The notes under the pieces are model-generated. The model made no database searches. It worked only from the letters and a program-made list of their open reading frames with translations, and was not told where the DNA came from. The translations under genes and the position numbers were made by a program. Positions 9,097 through 22,951 of a DNA stretch of 64,000 nucleotides are shown in pieces. How positions within the stretch are numbered: position 1 is the stretch's first letter; the number at the start of each line of letters is the position of its first letter. The stretch comes from Alphaproteobacteria bacterium (lineage in GTDB: Bacteria; Pseudomonadota; Alphaproteobacteria; JAJFFI01), in assembly GCA_030066595.1 (NCBI GenBank), contig JASJBI010000057.1, forward strand, positions 40,021-104,020. Reading direction: 5' to 3'.

Positions 9097-9186
9097 TCGA
9101 GAATGCCGGACTTGGGAACGCCGCGGGAGACGCTGCAAGAAGCCGACCTGCGGCTCATAACAACGAAGCAGAGGAGGGAACAGACA

Positions 9187-10167
9187 ATGCTGTCCAGACT
9201 ATCAACAACGGCGCTCACGGCACTGCTGGGGTGGTTCCTGATCGGAACCGCGCCCGCGTTTGCCGCCGATTACACCGTAAAGATCGCCTATGAAACATCC
9301 GAGACGCACCTCAAGGCGCGCACGGCGGCGCTGTTCGCGGACGAACTCAAGAAGCGGAGCGGCGGCAAGATCGACGTCGAGATCTTCCCCAACGCCTCGC
9401 TGCTGCCGTCGAAGCAAGAGGTGAATGCGGCCATCCGCGGACAGGTTCAGGTGATCCTGCCGTTCCTGAGCTACTACGAATCCATCGCGCCGAGCGTCAA
9501 GGTGTTCACCATGCCCATGGTTTTCGCCGACTACGGCCATCTCGCCAAGGCGTGGCAGGGCAAGGCGGGCGATCAGATCCGCAAGGAGCTCGACAAGGTC
9601 GGCCTCCACGCGCTCGCCTTCTGGTACGAGACGCCGACCCAGCTGTTCACGACGGGAAAGCAGGTCACCAATCTGGATCAGCTCAAGGGACTGAAGATCC
9701 GGACCTATCCCTCGGCATTGCTGGAATCGACGCTGACCAATCTCGGCGCCGTGGCCACGGTGATCCCCGGCAGCGAGGTCTATCTGGCGCTCCAGAACAA
9801 CACGGTCGATGGGGCCATCACGACGCCGAGCTTCGCCGCTTCGCTCAAGCTCACCGAAGTGCTCAAGACCATGACCCAGATCGGTCTCGCCTATGGCGGC
9901 TACATCCTGGCGATCAACAAGGACTTCTACGACAAGCTGCCGGCCGACCAGAAAAAGGCGGTGGACGAATCGGCCGCGGTCGCCTCTGAGTGGAACGCCA
10001 AGGAGATCGACGCCGAGGTCGAGAAGTCCAATGCGGCGATGCGCGACGCCGGGGTCAAGGTGTTCGACCTCGACAAGGGCGACCGCAAGCGCTGGGTCGC
10101 GGCGGTGCAGCCGGTGTTCAAGGAGCAGGACGACTCGCTCAAGGCGCTGATTGACGCCGTGAAGTAA
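9187..10167 (+). CDS. dctP: TRAP transporter substrate-binding protein (DctP family)
   Basis: Signal peptide (MLSRLSTTALTALLGWFLIGTAPAFAADY) and DctP-like body. A good SD (GGAGGGA) lies upstream of the ATG at 9187. Confidence 0.85.
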   Translation: MLSRLSTTALTALLGWFLIGTAPAFAADYTVKIAYETSETHLKARTAALFADELKKRSGGKIDVEIFPNASLLPSKQEVNAAIRGQVQVILPFLSYYESIAPSVKVFTMPMVFADYGHLAKAWQGKAGDQIRKELDKVGLHALAFWYETPTQLFTTGKQVTNLDQLKGLKIRTYPSALLESTLTNLGAVATVIPGSEVYLALQNNTVDGAITTPSFAASLKLTEVLKTMTQIGLAYGGYILAINKDFYDKLPADQKKAVDESAAVASEWNAKEIDAEVEKSNAAMRDAGVKVFDLDKGDRKRWVAAVQPVFKEQDDSLKALIDAVK

Positions 10168-10193
10168 TCGCGCCGCGCCGGTAGTATCGGCGC

Positions 10194-10727
10194 ATGCCGA
10201 GCGGCGCGCGCATTCGGAGGATCATCCGCCGTCTCGACGGGGTGTTGAGCCGCGTCGAGACGGCGCTGGTCTCCGGGTGCCTGGGATTCGCGGCCTTGAC
10301 CGCGTTCGGCTTGATCGCCGGACGCAACCTGCTCAACCGATCCTACAACGCCCTCGAGGAGATCTCGGTCTACCTCATCATCTGGATGGTGTTCGCGGGC
10401 ATGATGCTGGCCGACCGGGCGCGTCAGCACATCTCGATCGACATCGTCCACTACATCATCCCCGCGCACTGGCAGGGCCCGCTACAGAGAATCGCGGACG
10501 GGTTTCAAGCTCTGGTCTGCCTCGGGCTTGCCTGGTTCAGCCTGGACGCGGTGCGGTTCTCCTGGCGGATCGGCGAGCGCTCGGTCTCGACCCTCGAGCA
10601 GCCCATCTGGGTGCTGATGTCCATCATGCCGCTCGCCTTTCTGGTGGTCGGGTTGCGGTCGCTCGCACGCAGCCTCGGCGAGACCCGCGCGCGAGAGGTT
10701 CGCGACGAGGGAGTGTCGTCTGTTTGA
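10194..10727 (+). CDS. dctQ: TRAP transporter small permease (DctQ family)
   Basis: 177-aa protein with four predicted TM helices, lying between dctP and dctM. Confidence 0.75.
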   Translation: MPSGARIRRIIRRLDGVLSRVETALVSGCLGFAALTAFGLIAGRNLLNRSYNALEEISVYLIIWMVFAGMMLADRARQHISIDIVHYIIPAHWQGPLQRIADGFQALVCLGLAWFSLDAVRFSWRIGERSVSTLEQPIWVLMSIMPLAFLVVGLRSLARSLGETRAREVRDEGVSSV

Positions 10728-12025
10728 CTGACCAGACCGCCCTCCTGATCGCTCTCGTCGTCCTGGTCCCGGTGCTGCTGTCGGGACTGCCGATCGCCTT
10801 TTCCCTGCTTCTCGTGTCGATCGGCTACTTCCTGCTGAGCGGCTCCGACGCGGCGGTCACCGCCTCGAACATGTTCTGGTTTCTGAACAAGTCGGAGCTG
10901 ATCTCAATCCCCTTCTTCATCCTGGCCGCCGATATCCTGGGGCGGAGCCGCGCGACGGACGACCTCGTGGCCGCCGCCGAGGCCCTGTTCGGCTGGCTGC
11001 GCGGCGGGCTCGCGCTGGTCACCATGGTCTCGACCATCGTGTTCAGCGCGATCAGCGGTTCGAGCGTCGCGACCGCGGTGGCCATCGGCCGGGTGATGAT
11101 CCCGAAGCTGGTCGAGGCCGGCTACAACCGCCGCTTCTCGGTCGGGCTGGTGGCGGCGGGCGGCGGGCTCGGCATCCTGATCCCGCCGAGCGTGCCGCTG
11201 ATCATCTACGCGACCGTCGCCGAGATCTCCGTGGCCGACGTGTTCATGGCGGCGACCGGCCCGGGCCTGCTGATGGGCGCCGTGTTCTGCGTCTTCATCG
11301 TGATCATGGGGAACCGGGCGCGCGACCCGAAGGCCCGCTTGGTGGCGCCGGAACTCAGGCCAGGCGACCGCGCGCGCCTGCTGCTGCGGGCCGGGCCCGT
11401 CATCCTGCTGCCCTTTCTGATTCTGGGCGGCATCTACGGCGGCTATTTCACGCCCGGCCAGGCGGCGGCGGTCTCGGTGATTTATGCCGGGGTCCTGAGC
11501 CAGACCTTCTACCGTCGCCCGGGCATGGAGCCGCTCCCCCGGCTGGTCGCCGAGGCCGGGCGGCTGGCGGCGGTCATCCTGCTGATCATGGCGGCCACCT
11601 CCGTGTTCGGCTACATCATCACCCAGAACCGGATTCCCTTTCACTTCGCGCAGTACATCGACGGGCTCGGGCTCTCGCCCTTCGTGTTCCTGATCTGCGT
11701 GAACGTGCTGCTGCTGCTGCTCGGCTGCCTTCTGGAGATCATCTCGGTGATTCTGATCACGCTGCCGATCTTCCTGCCGATCCTGGCGCAGCTCGACATC
11801 AACCCGGTGCACTTCGCCATCGTCATGATCATCAACATGGAGCTTGCCGTGATCACGCCGCCCATCGGCATGAACCTGTTCGTGATCTCGTCGATCAGCG
11901 ATGTGCCGCTGTTGCGGGTGTTCCAGGGCACGCTGCCGTTCGTGGGACTGATGCTCGCCATGCTGCTGCTCACCACCTACTCAGAGGCGGTGGCGTTGGC
12001 CACGTTGCGGCTCTTCGGCGGGTAG
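10724..12025 (+). CDS. dctM: TRAP transporter large permease (DctM family)
   Basis: LTDQTALLIALVVLVPVLLSGLPIAFSLLL... is a typical DctM N-terminus. The TTG start at 10724 overlaps the dctQ stop; the track's 10277 start is an out-of-context extension. Confidence 0.8.
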   Translation: MTDQTALLIALVVLVPVLLSGLPIAFSLLLVSIGYFLLSGSDAAVTASNMFWFLNKSELISIPFFILAADILGRSRATDDLVAAAEALFGWLRGGLALVTMVSTIVFSAISGSSVATAVAIGRVMIPKLVEAGYNRRFSVGLVAAGGGLGILIPPSVPLIIYATVAEISVADVFMAATGPGLLMGAVFCVFIVIMGNRARDPKARLVAPELRPGDRARLLLRAGPVILLPFLILGGIYGGYFTPGQAAAVSVIYAGVLSQTFYRRPGMEPLPRLVAEAGRLAAVILLIMAATSVFGYIITQNRIPFHFAQYIDGLGLSPFVFLICVNVLLLLLGCLLEIISVILITLPIFLPILAQLDINPVHFAIVMIINMELAVITPPIGMNLFVISSISDVPLLRVFQGTLPFVGLMLAMLLLTTYSEAVALATLRLFGG

Positions 12026-12074
12026 CGCATGATCGGGTTCGGCATTTCGGACAGACACATCGGATCCTGAAGCC

Positions 12075-12542
12075 ATGTCTGACAAGATCGTTCCGCTCCA
12101 TCGTCTGCCGCCGGGCGCGCCCTACTGGGAGGTCGGTGGTCTCGTCGACCGTACCGAGGTCACGTTGGCGCTGCACGGCGACGACCTCGACCCGCCCGAG
12201 ATCACGCGGCGCATCGGCCGCGAGCCGACCCACGCCCACCGCCGCGGCGAGCCGAGCGAGGGCCCCAAAGTCAAGATTCCCTACAAGTCCGGGGCGTGGC
12301 TGCTGACCGTGGATGTGGAAGCCCCGGAGGGGCCGGAAGAAGCCACGGAAGAGCTGCTCGACCTCCTGCCCGACGACCAGGGCCTCTGGCAGGAGCTGTC
12401 TGAGCGGTATGACATGTATTTCTCCTACGGGATCTTCTTCGACGGCGTCAACCGGGGGTTCACGCTTTCCGCCGATCTGCAGCGGCGCCTCGCGACATAC
12501 CACGCCGATCTCAGTTTCGACCTGTACTCGAACCAGTCTTAG
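12075..12542 (+). CDS. Small cytoplasmic protein, DUF4279-like
   Basis: 155 aa. The pattern LALHGDDLDPPEITRRIGREPTHAHRRGEP...GAWLL...YDMYFSYGIFFDG...LSFDLY resembles my memory of DUF4279; that assignment is unverified. It is convergent with the zinc-ribbon gene. Confidence 0.5.
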   Translation: MSDKIVPLHRLPPGAPYWEVGGLVDRTEVTLALHGDDLDPPEITRRIGREPTHAHRRGEPSEGPKVKIPYKSGAWLLTVDVEAPEGPEEATEELLDLLPDDQGLWQELSERYDMYFSYGIFFDGVNRGFTLSADLQRRLATYHADLSFDLYSNQS

Positions 12543-12581
12543 CGGGATGACCGTGCTGCGCCCAGTCGGTCGGATCGTGCT

Positions 12582-13961
12582 TCAGATGCGGTGGCCGCAC
12601 TGGGTACAGAACTTCTTGCCGCGGCCGAGCTTGGCGCCGCATTTGACGCAGTGCTTGGCGGCAGCCGAAGCCGGTCGGCGCGACTTGGTGGTCGAACCGC
12701 GCTTGCCGGGCCGCCGCTGACTGACTGCGGCTTTCGGCGCTTTCCGCGTGCGGCTGGCTGTCTTGGATTTTGCTGTTGCCGCCGTGCCCGCCGCGGCGCG
12801 CTTGGCCCTCTTTGGGGCCGCGCGAGGCGGCGCATCCGGTTTCGAACGCCGTGGGCGCGCGGCGGCTGCCTTCGGTGCCGCGGCCTTCGCCCGTGACCGA
12901 GCTTTGCCGGCCGGGCTCGCGGGGGAGACTTTTGGCGCCGATGCCGCCCTGGCCCGGCCGGACGCGGACCCAGCGAGCGAGTCGTCGACGATGGCAAAGG
13001 CGGTGTCAGCGGCCACGTCCGACAGCACGAGGCTCGCGGCACGGCCCGGCGGCCCGTCCCAGACACCGAGCAAGAGCCCGCCAGGCGCTCTGATCAGCAT
13101 GAGCCAGTCGACGGTCACGTCCCGGCCATCGGTCGCCATGACAATCAAGGAGCTGACCACCTGCGCTTCACTGAGCGCGCTGGCGACGCCCAGCCCAACG
13201 GTGGTCACCCGGCCCTCGGCATCGACCAGGCCCGAGGCGCCCAACTCCCGTACGCCGGCCTCGAGGACCTCGAGGCTTCGATCGCCGGCGATCGCTCCGG
13301 CGCTCACCAACGCCATCAAGGTGACGACGGCGCGCGTATCCGGCCGGTCGAGACCAAGTTCCGTCATGTGCGTCAGGTCCGTCAGATCGATGGGTGCGGC
13401 GGCAACGCTCATGAGGTCCGGGACGCGCGCCAGCCGGCTCTGCAGCTGGTCCTCGCTCAGCCGATCGGCGATTGCGGCGAGGGCCGTCAGAGCCTTGGTG
13501 CTGAGGCGCACCGAAAACCCGCTGTCCTGCGCCGGACCCGCGGTCAGGCCGCAGAGGTCGTCCAGGATGGCCATGAGCTGGTCGCGCGCCGTCAACAGCG
13601 CCAGGTCCCAGTCGCCCGCCTCGTCAATGGACAGCATGGCATAGGGTCCGTCCGCGCCATCGCACGCAAAGCGCGCCTCGATCGACACCGGACTGCCCGG
13701 CCGATAGCTGCTCACGTTGATTGACTGCGTCGGCGCGGCCAGCACGCGGAACAGGCATTCAGCCTCCGCCACAAGCTTGGCTTTGCCACGGCGCACATGG
13801 TTCGGCAGCGACGTCGCAGGCTCGGGCAGGCCCGCATAAAGCTGCGCGTCGGGCGGCGCTGCCCCCAGCACGGCGAAGCAGCCGGCCACCTCCGCCGGGC
13901 TCAGGATGAACCGGGCCGGCGCCAGGTCGCTAGGGCTGCTGCTGGTCGGTTTGGAACTCAT
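12582..13961 (-). CDS. Uncharacterised protein with a Lys/Ala/Pro-rich basic tail and a C-terminal double zinc ribbon
   Basis: The C-terminus has AKP-rich repeats (KAAAPKAAAARPRRSKPDAPPRAAPKRAKRAAAG...) followed by CVKCGAKLGRGKKFCTQCGHRI. The most plausible start (MSSKPTSS, 13961) overlaps the upstream gene's stop by 32 nt; the track's 14075 start is probably an extension. Confidence 0.55.
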   Translation of the reverse strand: MSSKPTSSSPSDLAPARFILSPAEVAGCFAVLGAAPPDAQLYAGLPEPATSLPNHVRRGKAKLVAEAECLFRVLAAPTQSINVSSYRPGSPVSIEARFACDGADGPYAMLSIDEAGDWDLALLTARDQLMAILDDLCGLTAGPAQDSGFSVRLSTKALTALAAIADRLSEDQLQSRLARVPDLMSVAAAPIDLTDLTHMTELGLDRPDTRAVVTLMALVSAGAIAGDRSLEVLEAGVRELGASGLVDAEGRVTTVGLGVASALSEAQVVSSLIVMATDGRDVTVDWLMLIRAPGGLLLGVWDGPPGRAASLVLSDVAADTAFAIVDDSLAGSASGRARAASAPKVSPASPAGKARSRAKAAAPKAAAARPRRSKPDAPPRAAPKRAKRAAAGTAATAKSKTASRTRKAPKAAVSQRRPGKRGSTTKSRRPASAAAKHCVKCGAKLGRGKKFCTQCGHRI

Positions 13962-16900
13962 CCCGCCATCCCTTGACCACGAGCTTGGGTGTCGACGCCG
14001 TGGCGCCCGGCGCAGCGGCACCCGGCACGGGGGCGCCGCCGCCGCGCAACTTCTGGAGACCTTCGACATAGGCACTCATCTGCCCGGCCAGCTGCTCCGT
14101 GCCGGTGCCCATGCGCGCCAGCACGGCTTCGGCCTGCGCCGGGGTCAGGTGCCCCGTCTGCACTTGTTTCAGCACATTGACGCCCTCGGACAGGGAGCGC
14201 GGGATCGTGGCACCCGGGGCGTTGCCCAGCGCCTGCATCGCGCGGGTGCGCGTGACCACCATGTTGCCGTACTGCTTGACGAGCTGGCGCTGCGCCTCCT
14301 CCTCGAGGGCAACGGCGGCTTCGAGCAGCTTTTGCTTTTGACCGGGGGTGCTCGCGGACGCCGCCGCGCGCTTCAACTCGTCGGCTTCCTTCATCCAGTG
14401 ATTGACCTTGAATTCGACCGTCTTGGCGGTGACGGCGGGGTCAATGAAGTCGCGGCCGCGATACGCGTCCTTGGTTGCGGTATCGAGGTCGCCCTGGCCA
14501 GTGCCATAGGCTTCCGGGTGCAGCCGATCGGTGGTCGCCTGGTCGAGCCGCTTGGCGAGCTTGTCGGCGTCCAAGATATCGTTCGGGTCGGCCAGATGCT
14601 CGGACGGGCTCAGATGGGTGTCCTTGAAATCGACGCTCGACTGCTGGGCCGCCATCTCCGCTCGTGGCTGCCGGCTCGGGGTTGGCGCGTCATCGACCCC
14701 CTTGGCTGCCTTGTAGAGCTCTTCGTTGTAGATCCGCGCCGTCGTGGTCGACGGGACGTCCTCCATGATCACGCGTCCGGTGTGGGGATCGACGGTCCGG
14801 ACGCGCATGGTCAGGTCGCGGTCGAAGCTCGCCTTGTTGCCCTTGGGCTCGCGAGCGGCCTGGGCCGCGTCCGCGGGCGATTGCGACGGGCCGGTGCCCG
14901 TCGTATCTGCGGCGCTGCCCCGGCTTGCCTCGGCCCGGCTGCCGGTCACGCCGCCGTCGGGCTCCCAATGTGACGCATGACCCCAGTTCTCGCGCGGCGG
15001 GGCGCGTGGGTCGATCTTCATGCCCGCTTCGCCCGGCATGTTGGTGATGGTCACGACCTGAACGTCTTCCGGTCGCACGCCATACTCCTCGGCGAGCCGG
15101 GCCTTGGTCCCGCGATCGGCCTGCTCGTATATCGCATCCATCTCGCCGTTGAACTCTTTGATGACGGCGTTCTCGCCGTCCGTCTTGGGCAGCCTGTTCA
15201 ACTCGTTCATGGCATGCTTGTCGGCCTGAACGCGGAGCACGTCTTCGCGCATCTGGCGTTCCAGCGCGGCGATCTGGTCGGGTGTCGCGGTGCCGCTCGC
15301 CCTGGCGGCCTCCAGCTCCTCGATCGAACGGCTCAGCGCCTCGACCTTCTCGCGCCCAGCGGCCCGGCCGCTCTCGAAGTGGTCATCCATCTCGCGCGTG
15401 ACCCCTGAGTCCCGCGTTTCGGCGGCAATGCGCTCGGTCTCCGCCGACAGCTGCGCCTCGTTGAACCTGGTCTCGGCGAGATCGGGCGTCAGGCGGTGCG
15501 ATCCACCATCGGGCGTCAGGCGGCCCGATCCCCCGAGGCCGATCCCATCGAGCGCCGACTCGATCGCTTCCGTGCCGGTCTTGTTGAGGGCGTTGACGCG
15601 TTCCGAAACGGCCGTCGTCATATCCGAGATGCCACGCTTGAGATTGGCGTGGGTCTCGGCGTCCAACACCCGTTTGGCGACCGAGTCCAGCGCCGCGCCA
15701 GGCTCTACGCCCGCAACCTCGGCAATATCCAGTCCGGCCGCCGCATCGGCAAACATGCTGACGCCGAGTTCCGTCCAGGAAACCTTCTCGCCGCGGCGCA
15801 TACGGACGAGCGCATCGACCGTGTTGACCGGCAGGTTCTCCCTGACGAACTCGCCCGTGACGGTGTTCAGCACGTCGGTCGATGTGAAGTCCTTGCCCTG
15901 ATCGACGGCCCGGTGCACGCTCGTCTGGACCGCTTGGAGCGTGGTGCCGCTTTGAAACACAGCCTCGCTCCATCCTTTCGTTGCGACGCCTAGAATTGCT
16001 CGCTTCCAGAAGCTGTTGGACGCGTCTTTGAAGCCATGGTGTGCGGCGTCCTGCAGAATGTCGACCGTCGAGGTGCGTCCGAGCTTGTGATCCGGCATCG
16101 CCAGGTCCCGGGACAGGCGGCTTCGCAGCGCTCCTTTGAGCCTGTTCACATAGTCGATATTGACGGAGCCATCGTCATTGTAGATCTGGCCGTGATGGCT
16201 GCGCGCCAGGATCTCGTCGAGCCCCATGTGCTCGGCCGCCTTGCGGATGCGGTCGATATCGTCGATGGCCGCGCGCCGCTCCGCTTCCCCGCGGCGGATC
16301 TCGGCCTCTTTCCGGCGCTCGGCCTCGATCTGTTCCTTCGCGCGTTTCTTGAGCTCTTTGCGCCGGTCGTCGGACTCGCGTTCGAACGCGGTGGCGTCGC
16401 GCCGGCGCTGCTCCACCTCGCGCTCGAGCGCGGCGACCGCCCGTTCGGCTTGCGCACGGGAAAGCCAACGCCAGTTGCCCTTCTTGTCGGGCGCCCAGAC
16501 CTGGCCCTTGGCATTGACCTGGAGGGGCTGGCCGTCCCGCGGATCGATCAGCGGCGGCGGGCGCGCAACCGGCGGTCGGGGCGGGGCGGGTGGCTGGTGC
16601 GTCGGGCGTCCGCCGATGGCGTCGAGAATATCCTGCGTCGTGACATCGACCCCCGCCTGGACGGCGTTGGCGATCGCCGTGGCTACGGCCTGGGCGACGC
16701 TGACGGCGATCCCCGCCGCCACCAGGACCGAGGCGATGACGGCTGCCGCCGCCGCCGCCTCGTCCGAGGACAGCTCGATCTGGCCACCTTGGAACTGTCC
16801 GCCAAGGACGCCGAGGATGTTCCGGATCCAGAGCCAGATGCCTCCGCCTGGCCGCGGGAGATCCTTGCAAAGCTGATCAGAGAACTTCCGGTGATACCCT

Positions 16901-17175
16901 AGGAACTCGTCAAAGCAAAAGCAGTGAACGGCCCACCACCGGCAATCTCGGATGCGGTTCCCCCGGCGCCGTAAGGGCCGCTGGGCAAGAGTCGTGATCT
17001 CGTCAGTGTGCTGCGATCCCGGGAACAACCGCAGGGGTAGATCGACGTCATGGCCGATGGACGCCGGAAGCGGTGCACTTGATTGTTCGGCTTCGGCTCC
17101 CGTTGCGGCCTGCACGCCCTGCCCAAGTCCGCACAGCAGGACGCCGATGGCGAGGTATCGCAGCAGCCTTGTCAT
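13930..17175 (-). CDS. Large (about 1080 aa) uncharacterised envelope protein with signal peptide, Cys-containing N-domain, hydrophobic segment, Pro-rich linker, coiled coil and a long acidic region
   Basis: Start at 17175 (MTRLLRYLAIGVLLCGLGQGVQA, SD GGGGA upstream), not the track's 17598. It then has a Cys-rich segment (RDCRWWAVHCFCFDEF...LCKD), an Ala/Val-rich hydrophobic stretch, PPAPPRPPVARPPPL, a charged coiled coil (ERRKEAEIRRGEAERR) and an acidic remainder. No enzymatic motif recognised. An uninterrupted ORF of this length with protein-like composition is unlikely to be spurious. Confidence 0.6.
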   Translation of the reverse strand: MTRLLRYLAIGVLLCGLGQGVQAATGAEAEQSSAPLPASIGHDVDLPLRLFPGSQHTDEITTLAQRPLRRRGNRIRDCRWWAVHCFCFDEFLGYHRKFSDQLCKDLPRPGGGIWLWIRNILGVLGGQFQGGQIELSSDEAAAAAAVIASVLVAAGIAVSVAQAVATAIANAVQAGVDVTTQDILDAIGGRPTHQPPAPPRPPVARPPPLIDPRDGQPLQVNAKGQVWAPDKKGNWRWLSRAQAERAVAALEREVEQRRRDATAFERESDDRRKELKKRAKEQIEAERRKEAEIRRGEAERRAAIDDIDRIRKAAEHMGLDEILARSHHGQIYNDDGSVNIDYVNRLKGALRSRLSRDLAMPDHKLGRTSTVDILQDAAHHGFKDASNSFWKRAILGVATKGWSEAVFQSGTTLQAVQTSVHRAVDQGKDFTSTDVLNTVTGEFVRENLPVNTVDALVRMRRGEKVSWTELGVSMFADAAAGLDIAEVAGVEPGAALDSVAKRVLDAETHANLKRGISDMTTAVSERVNALNKTGTEAIESALDGIGLGGSGRLTPDGGSHRLTPDLAETRFNEAQLSAETERIAAETRDSGVTREMDDHFESGRAAGREKVEALSRSIEELEAARASGTATPDQIAALERQMREDVLRVQADKHAMNELNRLPKTDGENAVIKEFNGEMDAIYEQADRGTKARLAEEYGVRPEDVQVVTITNMPGEAGMKIDPRAPPRENWGHASHWEPDGGVTGSRAEASRGSAADTTGTGPSQSPADAAQAAREPKGNKASFDRDLTMRVRTVDPHTGRVIMEDVPSTTTARIYNEELYKAAKGVDDAPTPSRQPRAEMAAQQSSVDFKDTHLSPSEHLADPNDILDADKLAKRLDQATTDRLHPEAYGTGQGDLDTATKDAYRGRDFIDPAVTAKTVEFKVNHWMKEADELKRAAASASTPGQKQKLLEAAVALEEEAQRQLVKQYGNMVVTRTRAMQALGNAPGATIPRSLSEGVNVLKQVQTGHLTPAQAEAVLARMGTGTEQLAGQMSAYVEGLQKLRGGGAPVPGAAAPGATASTPKLVVKGWRDEFQTDQQQP

Positions 17176-17210
17176 GGCCGCGCCATTATCCCCATTACAC
17201 GATCGCAGTC

Positions 17211-17831
17211 TCATCTGGCGCTCTCCCGCACCACCCGCATCCGCACGAACAGCAGGAGGGACACGGTCGCCAGCATCGCCGTGGTGAACGCGCCGGTCAT
17301 GACGCCGCCCTGAACGAGGAAGGCTTGCGATCCGACCACCGACAGGAACTGGGTCAATCCATAGGTGACGGCCCACGCGATCAGGTAGCCCGTGGTCCGT
17401 TGAGCCATCAGGGACCCGTCGGCCACGTAGACGTGGTGGGCGCGGCCGCGGTATGCGCCGACGACCAGGCCCAGCAAGATGATCCCGAGCAGCAGGACCG
17501 GCGGCGGCAGATCGCGGTTCAGAACGGCGAGTTGCACCGCATAGCACCCGAAGGCGGCGAGCGGCGGCATGAGGCAGGCGATCCAATTGAGCCGCCATGG
17601 CCTCCGGTAGGTCCAGAGGAGCATGCCGAAGGACCCCGCGAAGAGCCAGATCAGACCTATGACGACTTGCCCGGAGGCGAGCAGGAAGAAGCCCGGGCCT
17701 AGAACCGCGGCGCTCATCGCCAAACTCTTGGCGAGGCTCTTGCCGCCGGCCGCGACCACGCGCCGCACCATTTCGGCCTTCAATTGGGCCGATTGTTTCG
17801 AGGCCTTGGTGCGTCGCGGTCTTGCAGGCAT
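17211..17831 (-). CDS. Integral membrane protein of unknown function
   Basis: 206 aa with a basic N-terminus and four to five hydrophobic helices. It lies immediately upstream of, and on the same strand as, the large protein gene (35-nt gap). Confidence 0.55.
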   Translation of the reverse strand: MPARPRRTKASKQSAQLKAEMVRRVVAAGGKSLAKSLAMSAAVLGPGFFLLASGQVVIGLIWLFAGSFGMLLWTYRRPWRLNWIACLMPPLAAFGCYAVQLAVLNRDLPPPVLLLGIILLGLVVGAYRGRAHHVYVADGSLMAQRTTGYLIAWAVTYGLTQFLSVVGSQAFLVQGGVMTGAFTTAMLATVSLLLFVRMRVVRESAR

Positions 17832-17949
17832 CTACGCCGCCCTTCCGCGACGGCGCCGGCCACCACCGCTGCCAGCGGTGGTCTCACCGCGCGAAGGCAA
17901 CGTCCGTCTCCTCCTGCCGGACGGATATGCTAGTCTTTCCGCTTAGGCG

Positions 17950-18324
17950 GTGGCAAGGGGAGCGGCGATGGCCGGGAAGTGCCCCGACTGTGGTGGCAGC
18001 GTCGCCAAGACTGACAAATTCTGCGGTCATTGCGGCGCGCCCGTTCGCGCGCCTCGGGCGCCGAGCAAGGCCCCGGCAAGCGTCCTACCTCCGGCGGCGC
18101 GCCCAACGCTCTCCGGTTTCGCGCTGTTTCGCGCGGTCGTCGAGGGCGTGGTGTGGTTCCTCGCCGCCTATGGTGTGCTCGCGGTCATAGACTATGTTCT
18201 GCGGTACCGCGGCTATTATGGTCTTCAAGACCTCATATGGCTGAGGGTCTTGATTTCCATCGCGGTCGGCGTGATCGCGTTCGTTTGGAAGCAGGGGTCT
18301 CTGCGTACCGACCGGCCGACCTGA
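17950..18324 (+). CDS. Zinc-ribbon domain membrane protein
   Basis: N-terminal CPDCGGSVAKTDKFCGHCGAPV zinc ribbon followed by two hydrophobic helices. Divergent from the membrane/large-protein operon. Confidence 0.5.
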   Translation: MARGAAMAGKCPDCGGSVAKTDKFCGHCGAPVRAPRAPSKAPASVLPPAARPTLSGFALFRAVVEGVVWFLAAYGVLAVIDYVLRYRGYYGLQDLIWLRVLISIAVGVIAFVWKQGSLRTDRPT

Positions 18325-18371: not shown

Positions 18372-19199
18372 CTAAGCCCGTGCCCTCACGCGCATCTCGA
18401 TCGGGCCCTTGGCGCGGCCATTGATCATCTGCTGCAGGTAGGGGTTGTCCGATGCGTCGATCTCGCTGGTTGCCCCGGCCCAGACGATGACGCCTTCGTG
18501 CAGCATGAACAGGTAGTCGTAGACGTGGCGCGCGGACGCCATGTCGCTGGTGATGCAGAAGGCGGTGGAGCCGAGCTCGCGCACATTTCGGTCGATCATG
18601 ACGTTGATGGTGCCGGTCGTGATCGGATCGAGACCGGCCGTCGGCTCGTCCAGCAGGAGGAGGGCAGGATCGCCCGCTATGGCCCGGGCGAAACCCACCC
18701 GCTTCTGCATGCCGCCGGACAGTTCGGCCGGGTAGAGGTTCGCCGTCTCGGGCGGCAGATTGACCATGGCGAGTTTCTGAACCGCCATGTCCTTGGCGTC
18801 CCTGCGGCCGACGCCCAAGGTGTTGATCAGCTTGAAGCTGATGTTCTCCCAGACCGGCAGGCTGTCGAACAGTCCGCCTTGCTGGAACAGCACGCCGAAG
18901 GTTTCCATCAGCTTTTCCCGCTCGCGGTCCTTGAGCCCGGCCATATCCTGCCCGTCCACCGCGATGGTGCCCGCGTCCGGCGAATAGAGCCCGGCCAAGC
19001 ACTTCATCAGCACCGTCTTGCCGGATGCCGCCGGGCCGATGAGCACCGATTTCTTACCCGCCGGCAAGTCCAGATCCACGCCGCGCAGGACCTGGTTCCC
19101 TCCGAAGCTCATGGTGAGCCCGGAGATCCGCACCTTGGTTTCCATATTGGCCGGCATTGCGTGGGGGTCCCCCTCATGAACTCCGTTCGGCGCAGACAT
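18372..19199 (-). CDS. ABC transporter ATP-binding protein, MlaF/Ttg2A-like, with no adjacent permease
   Basis: Walker A GPAASGKTV, signature LSGGMQKRVGFARA and Walker B LLLLDEPTAGLD. The start is uncertain (19199, 19157 or 19145). Confidence 0.75.
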   Translation of the reverse strand: MSAPNGVHEGDPHAMPANMETKVRISGLTMSFGGNQVLRGVDLDLPAGKKSVLIGPAASGKTVLMKCLAGLYSPDAGTIAVDGQDMAGLKDREREKLMETFGVLFQQGGLFDSLPVWENISFKLINTLGVGRRDAKDMAVQKLAMVNLPPETANLYPAELSGGMQKRVGFARAIAGDPALLLLDEPTAGLDPITTGTINVMIDRNVRELGSTAFCITSDMASARHVYDYLFMLHEGVIVWAGATSEIDASDNPYLQQMINGRAKGPIEMRVRARA

Positions 19200-19274
19200 C
19201 GGATCTCTTTCACCGACTGACCGCGATCACCACGGGATCCTATGCGCGCAAGCCGCTCTTGCAAGAGCCGTGTT

Positions 19275-20975
19275 CTAGGCCACCCACTCGCTGACCGGCG
19301 CGCGGGCCTCGTGCAGCGGCTGCGTCTCGATATCGACGAGCGTCGGCCCGCCGGCCTCGACCGCGGCGGAGAGGGCAGGGCGCAGCGCGGCGGCTTCGCG
19401 CACCCGCCAGGCCTTCAGGCCATAGGCCTCGGCGACCGCGCCGTGATCGGTGCGGCCGAAGTCCACGGAGTAATACCGCTCGGCATAGCCGCTCTTCTGG
19501 CCCGCCTTGATCCAGCCATAGGTCGCGTTCGACAGCACGATCAGCGTCACCGGAAGCTTCAGGCGGGCGATGGTCTCGAGCTCGCCGGCCGCGAAGCCGA
19601 AGCCGCCGTCGCCTATAACCGCAACGCATTTGGCATCCGGCCGCCCGAACTGCGCGCCGACGACGGCGGGTAGACCATAGCCCAGGGCGCCATGGGCGCG
19701 GTTGGAGATGAAGTGGCGCCCGGGCCTGCGGAACTCGTAGTAGGCGGAGATATAGGGACAGGGGGTCCCGGCATCGGCGATGACCACGGCTTCGTCGGGC
19801 AGCACCTCTTGCAGGTCCGCGACGATGCGTTCGGGTCGGATCGGCGTCTCGTCGGAGGCCGCAAGGTCTCGGAACGCCGCAAACTTCGCCCGCTTAAGCT
19901 GCTCGACCGCCCGGGCGGCCGCTTCGGACTCGCCAGCGTCCACCTTCTTTTCCAATGCGGCGAGGCACATCCGGGCATCGCCCACGAGCGCGACGTCCGT
20001 CCGATAGTTCACGCCGATGACCTGGGGGTCGATATCGATGTGGACCACCCGGGTGGCGCCGGGCTTGGGATAGCGCCAGCGCTCCGTCGTCACCGAGCCC
20101 GCCCGGCAGCCGATGAAGATGACCAGATCGGCCTCGGCCAGGATCGAGCGGGTCTCGGGCGTGCCGCCATTGCTGCCGACCACCCCGACCGCGAGTGCAT
20201 GGCTCTCCGGGATGCTGCCCTGACCGCTGATGCTGGTCGCGACGGGCGCGCCGCAGCTCTCGGCAAGCGCCTGCAACTCGCTCTCGCCGCCCGAGATCAC
20301 CACGCCGCCGCCGCAAACGATCACCGGTTTCCGCGCCGCCGCGAGCAGCTCCGCGGCCGCTGCCACGGAGTCCGGGTCCGGGCCGACGCGGCGTGCCGGG
20401 TATGTGCCCAGCGACGGGTCGGCCCAAACATCATCCGCGTCGACGGGGTCGTTCTGGACGTCGAAGGGCAGGCCGATATGGGCGGCCCCCGGACGCCCCG
20501 TCGTCATGGCGGTAAAGGCCGCGCGAATCGCCCCCGGGATCTCGCCGCCCCGATCGAGCACCCGGTTCCATTTGGTCACGGGCCGGAACAGGCTCTGCTG
20601 ATCCAGCTCGGTCAGCGTGAAGCGGCCGCGGGAGGAGGTCGAAATATCCGTCGTGATCGCCAGCACGGGCACCGACGACTCGTTGGCCTCGGCCAGCCCG
20701 GGCACCGTGTAGGTGGCGCCGCCGCCGCTCGGCCCCTCGCAGACGCCGACCCGGCCGCTCGTGCGCGCATAGGCGTCGGCCATGTAGGCGGCCGAGCGCT
20801 CGTCGCGGGTGAGCACGTGCTGGATGCCCCCGCCGATGCGATAGAGCGCGTCGTAGAGCGGCAGGCTGGTATCCCCGCAGAGCCCGAAGATGTGGCGCAC
20901 CCCGTGGGCCTCGAGCATGCGCACGACGGCTTCGGCACCCGAAAGCTGGTTCATCTGCGCGCTCTCGGGTGTCAT
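19275..20975 (-). CDS. Thiamine-pyrophosphate-dependent enzyme, acetolactate synthase large-subunit-like
   Basis: TPP N-domain (GVRHIFGLCGDTSLPLYDAL), central domain and C-terminal TPP-binding motif GDGGFGFAAGELETIARLKLPV. The ATG at 20975 forms an ATGA overlap with the upstream glyoxalase stop. Confidence 0.8.
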   Translation of the reverse strand: MTPESAQMNQLSGAEAVVRMLEAHGVRHIFGLCGDTSLPLYDALYRIGGGIQHVLTRDERSAAYMADAYARTSGRVGVCEGPSGGGATYTVPGLAEANESSVPVLAITTDISTSSRGRFTLTELDQQSLFRPVTKWNRVLDRGGEIPGAIRAAFTAMTTGRPGAAHIGLPFDVQNDPVDADDVWADPSLGTYPARRVGPDPDSVAAAAELLAAARKPVIVCGGGVVISGGESELQALAESCGAPVATSISGQGSIPESHALAVGVVGSNGGTPETRSILAEADLVIFIGCRAGSVTTERWRYPKPGATRVVHIDIDPQVIGVNYRTDVALVGDARMCLAALEKKVDAGESEAAARAVEQLKRAKFAAFRDLAASDETPIRPERIVADLQEVLPDEAVVIADAGTPCPYISAYYEFRRPGRHFISNRAHGALGYGLPAVVGAQFGRPDAKCVAVIGDGGFGFAAGELETIARLKLPVTLIVLSNATYGWIKAGQKSGYAERYYSVDFGRTDHGAVAEAYGLKAWRVREAAALRPALSAAVEAGGPTLVDIETQPLHEARAPVSEWVA

Positions 20976-21418
20976 GCGCGCTCGATCAACTCGACCTTGT
21001 AGCCGTCCGGATCCTCGATGAAGGCGATGACCGGGCCGCCATGCTTCATCGGGCCCGGCGGGCGGGGAATGCGCACGCCCTCGGCTTCCAGCGCCTCGCA
21101 GGTCTTGTAGATGTCCGGCACGCCGATCGCGATGTGGCCGTACGCGTTGCCGAGGTCGTAGGGCTCGTCCTGCTCCCAGTTGTGGGTGAGCTCGATCACG
21201 GTGCTGGCCTCTTCCGGCCCATAGCCAATGAAGGCCAGCGTGAATTTGCCGGTCGGGTAGTCCTTCCGGCGCAAGAGCCGCATGCCCAGGTGGCGGGTGT
21301 AGAAATCGAGCGTCTGCTCGAGGTCCCGAACCCGAAGCATGGTGTGCAGGAGCCGGAAGCCGGCGGTGTCCGTGGCGGTCTTTGGCTCCAGCGTGTCCGC
21401 GTTCGATGTCTCTGTCAT
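20972..21418 (-). CDS. gloA: Lactoylglutathione lyase (glyoxalase I)
   Basis: RLLHTMLRVRDLEQTLDFYTRHLGMRL...GHIAIGVPDIY...FIEDPDGYKVELIE matches the glyoxalase I/VOC fold. Start is 21418 or 21436. Confidence 0.8.
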   Translation of the reverse strand: MTETSNADTLEPKTATDTAGFRLLHTMLRVRDLEQTLDFYTRHLGMRLLRRKDYPTGKFTLAFIGYGPEEASTVIELTHNWEQDEPYDLGNAYGHIAIGVPDIYKTCEALEAEGVRIPRPPGPMKHGGPVIAFIEDPDGYKVELIERA

Positions 21419-21461
21419 GGCAATGCCTCCTCTCAATGCAGGCGATGTCCGGCCCGCTCGC

Positions 21462-21782
21462 TCACCGAATCGGCGAGAACGACACGGGCACGATGATCTT
21501 GTCCTCCTGGGTCATCAGCGCGCCCAGCTCTTCGTTCCGCCGCAGAAACTCCTGCCAGGCGGGATCCTGAGCCATCGCCGCGCGGCGGCGCTGGCGGTCG
21601 GCCAGATCCTCGAATCCCCAGAGATGGATGACCTGGTTGAGCGGGCCGATCTCGGTCTGGAAGAAGCCGATGAGATTGCCGAGGTGCTCGAGCTGGACCG
21701 GCAAGGCGTACTGCTCGTAGAGCGCCAGCCACTTGCCGAGCTTGAGGGGATACAGCGTGTAGGAACGGTGATCGATAATCAT
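21462..21782 (-). CDS. NIPSNAP-family protein
   Basis: MIIDHRSYTLYPLKLGKWLALYEQ...IHLWGFEDLADRQRRRAAM is the typical NIPSNAP pattern. Confidence 0.7.
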   Translation of the reverse strand: MIIDHRSYTLYPLKLGKWLALYEQYALPVQLEHLGNLIGFFQTEIGPLNQVIHLWGFEDLADRQRRRAAMAQDPAWQEFLRRNEELGALMTQEDKIIVPVSFSPIR

Positions 21783-21832
21783 GGTCTTTTCCTCCCCTTG
21801 TGGGTCGCCAGGTCACGACGGCGCGTGGCGCG

Positions 21833-22951
21833 TCATGCTGTACTGCAATCCGGCGCGATCACTTTCTCGCTGGCCAGATCGATCAGATGCATGTGGCTCA
21901 TGTCTGCCCTGAGACGGATGCGGTCGCCCGGCCGCCTGGGCACGCCCGAATCGGCGATCGCGGCGAACTCGATGCCGTCGATCGAGAAGGTGATCAGGCT
22001 GGTCGCACCCGTGGGCTCGATCACGTCTATCGTCGCGTCCAGGAAATGGCAGCTCGGCGCGTTCGTTTCCTGGCGGTCGGTGAGGTGATCGGGCCGCAAG
22101 CCGATCTCGACCGCCTGGTCCGCGTAGGGCCGATAGGCGGGCCAGCGTCCGCGCGGTACCGGCAGAACCGTCCCGTCGCGCAGCTCGGCGCTGAGTGCGC
22201 CGTTCTCGGCCACCAATCGCGCGGGAATGAAGTTCATGCGCGGCGAGCCGATGAACCCGGCCACGAACTTGTTGGTCGGATGCTGGTAGACCTCGACGGG
22301 ATCCCCGACCTGCTCGAACCGCCCGTCCCGCATGACGACGATCTTGTCAGCTAGGGTCATCGCCTCGACCTGGTCGTGGGTCACGTAAACGATGGTGGCC
22401 TGGAGCTTCTGATGGATCTTTTTGATCTCGATGCGCATCTGCGCCCGCAATGCCGCGTCGAGGTTGCTCAGCGGCTCGTCGAACAGAAAGGCCCGCGGGT
22501 TGCGCACGATCGCGCGGCCCATGGCGACACGCTGTCTTTGTCCGCCGGAGAGCTCGCGCGGCTTGCGGTCGAGCAGGGCAGTGATGTTGAGCAGTTCGGC
22601 GGCGCTCTGCACGAGCCGCTCCTGCTCGGCCCGCGAGACGCCCTTCATGCGCAGGCTGAACGCCATGTTCTTGCGCGCCGACATGTGCGGATAGAGGGCA
22701 TAGCTCTGAAACACCATGGCGACGTCGCGGGCTTTTGGAGGCAGGTTCTCGACGGACTCGTTGTCGAAACGGATGTTGCCCGAGGTCACCTCCTCGAGCC
22801 CGGCGATCATGCGCAGCGTCGTCGTCTTGCCACAGCCCGACGGCCCCACCAGAACCGTGAACTCGCCGTTCTCGATCGCCAGCGTGACGCCCCGGACGGC
22901 CTCGTCGTCGCCATACCGCTTGACCAGATTGTCGAGCACGATCCGCGCCAC
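21833..22951 (-). CDS. Sugar ABC transporter ATP-binding protein (MalK/UgpC-like with TOBE C-domain)
   Basis: Walker A GPSGCGKTT, Q-loop, signature LSGGQRQRVAMGRA, Walker B FLFDEPLSNLDA, H-loop VTHDQ and a C-terminal regulatory domain. Confidence 0.85.
   Translation of the reverse strand: MARIVLDNLVKRYGDDEAVRGVTLAIENGEFTVLVGPSGCGKTTTLRMIAGLEEVTSGNIRFDNESVENLPPKARDVAMVFQSYALYPHMSARKNMAFSLRMKGVSRAEQERLVQSAAELLNITALLDRKPRELSGGQRQRVAMGRAIVRNPRAFLFDEPLSNLDAALRAQMRIEIKKIHQKLQATIVYVTHDQVEAMTLADKIVVMRDGRFEQVGDPVEVYQHPTNKFVAGFIGSPRMNFIPARLVAENGALSAELRDGTVLPVPRGRWPAYRPYADQAVEIGLRPDHLTDRQETNAPSCHFLDATIDVIEPTGATSLITFSIDGIEFAAIADSGVPRRPGDRIRLRADMSHMHLIDLASEKVIAPDCSTA

Follow-up and report, generated by a model that had tools for sequence, protein, structure and literature searches.

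A rare, putative membrane-protein module with exchangeable effector regions and zinc-ribbon partners in an alphaproteobacterial genome

Introduction

The Kiwa (KwaA/KwaB) and Zorya (ZorAB plus effectors) systems combine a membrane-embedded sensor with a cytoplasmic effector in a small operon that is rare and horizontally scattered. N-terminal zinc-ribbon membrane proteins (Zn_Ribbon_1/DZR, e.g., TcaA) carry a cytoplasmic ribbon with four cysteines (Cys4) followed by a transmembrane (TM) segment, and HubP, FimV, and TolA are bitopic, with a Pro-rich linker and a long acidic region that is cytoplasmic or extended. Polymorphic toxin systems join a conserved N-terminal part to unrelated, swappable C-termini, keep a tightly linked neighbor gene that tracks the C-terminal type, and show a sparse, patchy spread with several differently armed copies per genome (Zhang, de Souza, Anantharaman, Iyer, and Aravind, 2012, PMC3482391; PMC13483458). 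Here, we describe a locus that resembles each of these in part. It lies in a 64-kb stretch of alphaproteobacterial DNA from contig JASJBI010000057.1 (the window, by which we mean the whole stretch), where an original prediction had flagged five open reading frames (ORFs) as a candidate functional module. Four of the five, at 12582–18324, are predicted from sequence comparison to be members of a rare, undescribed membrane-protein module, while the fifth, a DUF4279 gene, is not.

The likeness to Kiwa and Zorya is one of shared logic only. There is no sequence relationship to the module (no PADLOC match), and the module differs from both systems in that its putative effector is fused to the membrane core via a coiled-coil stalk and in its recurrent zinc ribbons. 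The accessory protein of the module and the core of most relatives share the ribbon-then-TM layout of TcaA-type proteins, but TcaA itself (NCBIfam) gave a weak match over the ribbon only (E = 0.065, ~23 residues), and the module's membrane domain, stalk, effectors, and partner have no counterpart there. Unlike HubP, FimV, and TolA, the large protein of the window lacks acidic repeats as well as LysM, FimV C-terminal, and TolA domains, its C-terminal region is globular and predicted to be exchangeable, and its distribution is far too sparse. Nor is there a Tol-Pal operon context as for TolA, the window neighbors being TRAP transporter and ABC genes as read from their translations. With polymorphic toxin systems, the module shares unrelated C-termini on a conserved N-terminal part and a sparse, patchy spread with differently armed copies, and its linked neighbor gene tracks the C-terminal type in part.

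Gene arrangement and membrane core

The statements on function made here are based on comparative genomics. All five ORFs are present in the ORF list of the window, and three of them, on the minus strand, form a conserved unit: a core subunit of 206 amino acids (aa) with six TM helices (6-TM; 17211–17831, called at 186 aa by NCBI), a large subunit of 1081 aa (13930–17175), and a partner of 459 aa (12582–13961). The stop of the membrane gene (17211) and the ATG of the large gene at 17175 are separated by 35 nt. The partner gene starts at 13961 and so shares 32 nt with the end of the large gene (stop at 13930), and relatives start at the equivalent residue. The fourth member, on the plus strand and divergent, encodes a 124-aa accessory zinc-ribbon protein with two TM helices (17950–18324). 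This arrangement, including the gap, the overlap, and the divergent orientation, is as originally described. The large protein is identical to protein QNJ94_19540 of an NCBI metagenome-assembled genome (MAG), and the partner is likewise identical to a hypothetical protein of an Alphaproteobacteria MAG. An alternative start of the large gene is an ATG at 17214 that overlaps the upstream TGA as ATGA and gives a product of 1094 aa. Use of this start would put 13 extra residues (MRLRSCNGDNGAA) before the annotated start and would imply translational coupling.

The 6-TM subunit has six predicted TM helices with both termini cytoplasmic, as judged from hydropathy, alignment, and the positive-inside rule. 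Its invariant motifs are WLF, TYR(K/R)PWRL, C..PP, R..H, and TGAF(T/S)TAML, and across 30 loci its relatives were 41%–52% identical to the window protein whatever the effector type. The window copy is without the N-terminal zinc ribbon carried by most relatives. In a word-indexed search, the large protein recovered five relatives of 1389–1597 aa (P0002–P0006), in which the N-terminal 220–330 residues consist of a zinc ribbon and a domain homologous to the 206-aa membrane protein. Most relatives in fact have the 6-TM and large genes fused, with P0002–P0006 and most of L009–L033 being single ORFs of 1071–1777 aa. The order in these fused proteins is zinc ribbon, 6 TM, TM7, hypervariable periplasmic loop, Ala-rich TM8, Pro linker, beta-hairpin, coiled coil, and C-terminal domain, and the signal-like helix of the window protein (aa 1–23; 17107–17175) aligns with their TM7. 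Because most genomes encode the two as one polypeptide, the window proteins, originally treated as independent, should be halves that assemble as one 8-TM unit.

The remaining N-terminal features of the large subunit follow the order first described for it. A periplasmic segment with four Cys (aa 24–135; 16771–17106) is followed by a conserved, Ala-rich hydrophobic helix that corresponds to TM8 (aa 136–175; 16651–16770), by a Pro-rich linker (aa 188–215) and a conserved beta-hairpin motif (aa 216–240; together 16456–16614), and by a long charged helix or coiled-coil stalk (aa 239–315; 16231–16461). The beta-hairpin motif reads P.(I/Y)D..G.P...N..GQ.W.PD..G.W.W, and the stalk marks the end of the core common to all effector types. 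An AlphaFold2 (AF2) model of the whole protein, built with six aligned sequences, was unusable overall, with a predicted local distance difference test score (pLDDT) of 49. The hairpin and long charged helix nonetheless reached 80–88 even with this shallow alignment, the hairpin stretch scoring 84–88, compared with ~25 for the periplasmic segment.

Positive charge at the N-terminus of the 6-TM protein and in its TM2/3, TM4/5, and post-TM6 loops places these parts on the cytoplasmic side. We infer that TM7 carries the variable loop across the membrane and that TM8 brings the chain back. With TM8 crossing the membrane once, everything beyond it, including the stalk and the effector, would be cytoplasmic, like the partner, which has a Cys4 ribbon and no signal sequence. 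The large protein contains Cys only before TM8. All five of its Cys fall within aa 15–103, and all those outside the signal-like helix are in the TM7–TM8 loop. This loop is hypervariable, at ~110 aa in the window and 230–300 aa elsewhere, and the window segment (16714–17216) had no similarity to relatives in any frame by tblastn. We considered whether this segment is a decayed remnant and rejected the idea, as no remnant was present in other frames; the segment is unique to the window genome.

The Pro-rich linker carries the motif NAPPNV..(S/T)(E/D)RVRPP once or twice in L009, L010, L012, L013, L026, and P0005/P0006. The linker after TM8 in the window protein has only a degenerate, Pro-rich version of it.

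Distribution and co-variation of effectors and partners

The module is rare and widely scattered. When 185,579 species genomes were pattern-scanned using the alignment of the membrane domain, 25 loci came up, carried by Alpha- and Gammaproteobacteria, Verrucomicrobiota, Planctomycetota, Acidobacteriota, and Kiritimatiellia. Two genomes contained two differently armed copies each. The 6-TM domain was absent from viral contigs (IMG/VR).

The large gene is usually followed by a partner. At the eight loci from protein look-ups (L001–L008), a protein ending in a Cys4 ribbon followed the large gene in every case, overlapping it or within 130 nt. Among the 30 tabulated loci, 26 had a homolog of the partner family or a protein with a C-terminal zinc ribbon after the large gene. 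In 25 of these the two were adjacent, and in L022 two genes lay between them. The partners in L009 and L017 are clear homologs of the partner N-terminal domain without the ribbon, and an unrelated gene lies downstream of the large gene in L011, L026, L027, and L032. The claim that this is an undescribed, conserved, and co-inherited module is thus upheld by the co-conservation of its genes across related loci, in which the long ORF is also intact.

Beyond the stalk, the large proteins are of unrelated types. Their last 450 residues fell into 12 clusters unrelated by BLAST among the 30 loci, and the two largest effector types, those of the window and of L007, were unrelated when aligned with hhalign (probability 0.2%). 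This pattern indicates that the region beyond the coiled-coil stalk is exchangeable, as far as can be judged by comparing sequences. Partner type follows effector type in several cases. The set of loci with the window-type effector is the same as the set with the window-type partner (8/8 loci), five loci combine the second effector type with a TPR-like partner of 200 aa, and one further pair of loci is concordant.

Effector region

The C-terminal 700 aa of the large protein had been read as acidic and low-complexity-like, if non-repetitive. The acidity (isoelectric point, pI, 5.4 for aa 305–1081) and the lack of acidic tandem repeats hold, but the region is not of low complexity and consists of conserved globular modules. 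Modules D1 (aa 305–494) and D2 (aa 495–594) span 15394–16263, the effector module D3–D5 (aa 595–1044) spans 14044–15393, and a disordered tail (aa 1045–1081) spans 13933–14043. D1 was also found with other C-termini. The motifs of D3–D5 are VQ.DKHA...N, (F/Y)DRD(V/L)T, IYN.EFY, DQ..TD, EAYG.G..DL, K..HW, and EEG.RQ.TKQ..N. Invariant or near-invariant polar residues of this module (K, Q, K, Q, R, E, D, D, D, Y, and Y) suggest a putative functional site.

The structure of the effector region was predicted with confidence. An AF2 model of aa 590–1081 (47 aligned sequences) had a mean pLDDT of 87 and a predicted template modeling score (pTM) of 0.89, with long helical hairpins around a small beta-sheet. 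A window-specific insertion (aa 713–785) and the tail were poorly ordered. Foldseek found no match to this model in PDB (best E = 0.8) or BFVD (best E = 1.1), so the predicted fold has no detectable solved or viral counterpart. The effector module was without similarity to known toxins by sequence or fold.

An exhaustive HMMER search with a profile of aa 305–1081 showed that the effector modules extend well beyond the 6-TM core, recovering 340 cluster representatives at E ≤ 1e-3, of which 216 remained at E ≤ 1e-10. Among 150 listed proteins for which domains were mapped, D3-(D4)-D5 was C-terminal in ~100, on very different N-termini: the zinc-ribbon/6-TM core, a signal peptide with an ecto-domain and one TM, other multi-TM regions, or no TM at all. 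Four Ig-domain-rich proteins contained the pre-toxin domain PT-TG, a hallmark of polymorphic toxins (PMC13483458; PMC3482391), with D5 ~300 aa further on. PT-TG was above the cutoff of 23.5 bits in P0137 and P0150 (29.4 bits in one and 24.5 bits in the other) and borderline in P0090 and P0152.

Distant D3–D5 relatives without the 6-TM core keep a similar neighborhood. The order in L036 is a gene combining a zinc ribbon with four TM helices (ZnR-4TM), the large gene, and a triple-ribbon protein. L037/L038 have ZnR-TM, two small multi-TM genes, the large gene, a partner that matches the window-partner profile at 3e-23, and ZnR-2TM. In the cultured clostridial Acetoanaerobium noterae DSL2 (L039), the order is ZnR-2TM, a small TM gene, the partner, and the large gene. 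The two small multi-TM genes directly upstream of the large gene (~145–177 aa each; L037 4299–5280 and L035 1–991) had no detected sequence similarity to the 6-TM domain and may be candidate functional counterparts of it. The L039 record, NZ_CP154629.1, is named "plasmid pTPELB2" in PLSDB. It is a 2.63-Mb circle with four annotated features, the module not among them, and looks like a chromosome-sized replicon.

Several smaller features of the effector region were also seen. A 27-nt tandem duplication (89% identical; 15481–15534) encodes a repeated (G)RLTPD in D2 and was the sole duplication found there. The tail of window-type effectors ends in a conserved GW(R/Q/K)D(D/E)F (window 13933–13990; L001, L003, L004, L009, L017, L021, and L025), a peptide that could be a docking motif. 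The second commonest effector, the L007 type (L007 6707–7666; also L008, L018, L020, and L029), has the motifs VVGARSTN...PKP.TIKSKT, AGDIDGVY, and GQHGVE.N. These are reminiscent of class II (EF/CyaA/ExoY) nucleotidyl cyclase toxins, but the L007 type had no Pfam match at E ≤ 1, to Anthrax_toxA-type profiles or otherwise, and no PDB profile match. A cyclase of this kind was not supported for the window effector either, by profile searches, hhalign, or fold search.

Partner protein and zinc ribbons

The partner had been described as a double zinc ribbon with an Ala/Lys/Pro-rich, histone-like tail. We found one ribbon, a C-terminal Cys4 at aa 437–459 (12585–12653; Pfam Zn_Ribbon_1, PF13240, 25.7 bits vs a cutoff of 25), and a conserved N-terminal domain of ~330 aa that had been overlooked (aa 1–335; 12957–13961). 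Between them is an Ala/Lys/Arg/Pro-rich basic linker (12654–12956). The C-terminal ribbon was present in 19 of 21 aligned partners. As for the linker, its basic character is real, but it reaches 117 aa and a pI of 12 in the window only. Relatives have linkers of 15–44 aa with a pI of 4.1–10.9, and two are without both tail and ribbon. The expansion of the basic linker is therefore lineage-specific and not a defining feature of the partner, and with no histone-like Pfam match, the DNA-binding reading of the tail is not supported. A word-indexed search with the partner returned the window protein itself only, and its only PDB match was ribbon-to-ribbon, to the Bdellovibrio regulator Bd2879 (9SFA).

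The accessory protein has a Cys4 ribbon at aa 10–32 (17977–18045, plus strand) that scored 23.0 bits for Zn_Ribbon_1, just under the cutoff of 25, although the full CxxC-x14-CxxC motif is present; two TM helices follow by hydropathy. The partner and accessory genes are the only two zinc-ribbon ORFs in the 64-kb window. Of 23 related genome loci, 14 had similar small ZnR-TM genes no more than 6 kb away, and such genes were likewise seen in L001, L003, L004, L036, L037, and L039. Two of these neighboring genes resemble the divergent gene of the window over its whole length. Given this recurrence, we regard the divergent gene as a frequent accessory component. Across the 30 loci, both core and partner carried a ribbon in 21, the core but not the partner in three, the partner but not the core in three, and neither in three.

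Comparison with known families

Five window proteins and ~35 relatives were scanned against Pfam, NCBIfam, PADLOC, and PHROGs. The large and 6-TM proteins matched no family in any of these (the large protein none at E ≤ 1 in Pfam and NCBIfam), and the partner and accessory proteins had zinc-ribbon matches only. Sub-threshold matches among relatives were to EspG (E = 0.015, one partner), CcdC/DUF1453 (E = 0.062, one core), and TPR (L007-type partners). The best matches in PADLOC-DB 2.0.0, to LmuB (E = 0.05) and REase_II (E = 0.079), were not significant. PHROGs gave matches at the level of the zinc ribbon only and did not support a tape measure or other phage protein. PDB sequence and profile searches with the large protein, effector, partner, core, and L007-type effector were also limited to ribbon-level matches, to Bd2879/9SFA and ArnA. 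A known family, such as a tape measure protein or a TolA paralog, might have accounted for these genes, but none emerged from the family, PDB, or fold searches. All components except the ribbons are thus unannotated, and PADLOC does not list the architecture. No description of such a system turned up in term searches of the literature, and those of the 2012 survey of polymorphic toxins (PMC3482391) found neither the system nor an N-terminal module of this kind.

Interpretation

A conserved core, the replacement of distal domains, a partner that tracks them, rarity with scatter over at least six phyla, genomes with multiple copies, and the presence of D5 in PT-TG proteins together favor a conflict system over a housekeeping scaffold. 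The reading we consider best, at somewhat less than an even chance, is that the locus encodes a membrane-anchored polymorphic effector and its cognate zinc-ribbon partner, acting in such a system. The partner would bind the effector, holding it inactive or chaperoning it, and its zinc ribbon, like the core and accessory ribbons, would retain it at the membrane complex. Sensing or targeting would fall to the hypervariable periplasmic loop and the membrane core. The effector may work inside the cell that makes it, as in a defense or abortive type, or be delivered to others, a variant treated below. A cue such as envelope damage, phage, or a competitor might be sensed by the loop or the core, and the signal would then pass through TM8 and the stalk, freeing or activating the effector on a cytoplasmic target.

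Several observations weigh against this conflict-system reading. The effector types had no toxin, nuclease, protease, or defense profile match. D5 is not at the extreme C-terminus of the PT-TG proteins but ~300 aa past PT-TG, and so may not be their toxic part, and the gene after P0090 encodes an unrelated multi-TM protein. The pairing of effectors and partners is not one-to-one: one divergent partner cluster (13 loci) serves eight effector clusters, and the window-partner profile weakly detects most partners of that cluster beyond the ribbon. In addition, the loci behind the co-variation counts are not phylogenetically independent, which makes the Fisher P value for the co-variation indicative only, and the partner of Acetoanaerobium is upstream of the large gene, in reversed order. 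The 36-residue Ala-rich segment could instead be a re-entrant hairpin, with the C-terminus then outside. Finally, the window locus had no island signatures (no tRNA genes, flanking repeats, or GC shift) and is surrounded by transport and metabolic genes, and defense-type neighbors elsewhere are anecdotal only. These neighbors are Wadjet genes that adjoin L007 (JetD_C and SMC-like JetC; 11154–13415) and NYN and Fic genes near L008 (8056–8529 and 17139–18245).

An interbacterial polymorphic toxin with immunity is an unlikely alternative. Here, the C-terminal domain would be released to neighbor cells, the zinc-ribbon/8-TM core would be a new trafficking or anchoring module, and the partner would be a cytoplasmic immunity protein, as immunity proteins to cytoplasm-acting toxins are (PMC3482391). 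Variable C-termini on a conserved N-terminal region, the linked and co-varying downstream gene, two differently armed copies per genome, and the occurrence of D5 downstream of PT-TG in four Ig-rich proteins all fit a toxin of this kind. However, neither the window protein nor its 6-TM relatives contain a known trafficking, pre-toxin, or processing domain (type V, VI, or VII secretion system, Rhs, PAAR, LXG, PT-TG, or HINT/PT-HINT), and secretion genes are missing nearby. The N-terminal part of the window protein is instead a zinc-ribbon-family 8-TM anchor, and this anchor and the inferred cytoplasmic location of the C-terminus argue against release. Partners of most types are mutually homologous and zinc-ribbon-bearing, which is unusual for immunity proteins. 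The reversed gene order in Acetoanaerobium fits poorly as well, no orphan toxin or immunity cassettes were seen, and none of the 12 C-terminal types of the module matches a known toxin family.

We give a similarly low probability to a transmembrane receptor or signaling complex with no conflict role, in which the variable periplasmic loop would bind an environmental ligand, the cytoplasmic domains would be output or enzymatic modules, and the partner would be a regulator or adaptor whose basic linker, in this genome, might bind DNA. The topology is receptor-like, and many D3–D5 proteins consist of a signal peptide, ecto-domain, one TM, and cytoplasmic region. The conservation of the partner family across effector types and phyla, the ordinary chromosomal context of the window locus, and the zinc ribbons appended to bacterial regulators such as Bd2879/9SFA and ArnA are also consistent with signaling. 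Against this, occurrence is extremely sparse and scattered over the phylogeny, entire output domains give way to unrelated ones, and the basic linker is not conserved. No histidine kinase, GGDEF, cyclase, kinase, or helix-turn-helix domain was recognizable.

The separation of the 6-TM and large genes could in principle reflect a frameshift error in the MAG or recent pseudogenization, leaving a broken copy. The source is indeed a MAG, most relatives are fused, and the two genes are in different frames 35 nt apart. We nevertheless find this explanation improbable. The same TM6/TM7 break occurs in at least four other loci (L007, L008/L024, L016, and L018), with a gap of 14 nt in L007, L008/L024, and L018, and because this split point recurs, the window split is a natural fission and not evidently an assembly error. 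Both window ORFs are also long and intact, with their own start codons, including the ATGA overlap option, and other frames hold no decayed remnants.

Hardly credible, lastly, is the reading of the original prediction, in which a HubP/FimV/TolA-like scaffold marks the pole or spans the envelope and its zinc-ribbon partner binds DNA in a histone-like way: the order of signal peptide, periplasmic segment, TM, Pro-rich linker, coiled coil, and acidic C-terminus would suit it, as would the basic linker of the partner, but Pfam and NCBIfam gave none of the defining domains, the C-terminal region is globular, non-repetitive, and swappable, the basic linker is absent or acidic in relatives, and occurrence in 25 of 185,579 species genomes is a misfit with a core cell-biology scaffold.

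Returning to the membrane-anchored effector and its partner, a broader proposal is possible, which we advance tentatively. The module may represent an unrecognized class of transmembrane machine in which an 8-TM zinc-ribbon core couples a hypervariable loop, via the stalk, to interchangeable cytoplasmic effectors of new fold with dedicated zinc-ribbon partners. By ancestry and by mechanism, such a class would stand apart from known toxin-delivery, toxin-antitoxin, and defense systems, and it would be conserved from Alphaproteobacteria to Clostridia. If the effector-and-partner reading holds, the locus would define a family with at least 12 uncharacterized effector domains, one of them with a confidently predicted fold without a solved or viral match, all joined to a membrane core of a new kind and under the control of zinc-ribbon partners. 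It would be a new architecture for bacterial conflict or signaling systems, and hundreds of proteins now called hypothetical would be annotated by it. Cultured carriers, namely Erythrobacter sp. GH1-10, Roseovarius ramblicola CECT 9424, and Acetoanaerobium noterae DSL2, make the module directly testable, and recurrent fusion and fission at one point would offer a natural handle on the assembly of its parts.

Genomic setting

The fifth flagged ORF, at 12075–12542 on the plus strand, is a DUF4279 gene as first proposed (Pfam PF14106; E = 1.2e-18, 67.9 bits vs a cutoff of 25). It converges on the partner gene with a 39-nt gap. As DUF4279 was in none of the related loci compared, we do not consider it part of the module, contrary to the initial grouping.

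The divergent intergenic region between the 6-TM and accessory genes spans 17832–17949. A sigma-70-like site for the minus-strand operon is at 17956–17927, a consensus match only and as such weak evidence, and another sigma-70-like match is at 17214–17185.

Judged from translations only, the locus is flanked on one side by a TRAP transporter (DctP/Q/M-like; 9103–12025). On the other side (18372–22951) are genes for an ABC ATPase, a thiamine-diphosphate enzyme, a glyoxalase, and a sugar-ABC ATPase, which are ordinary chromosomal genes.

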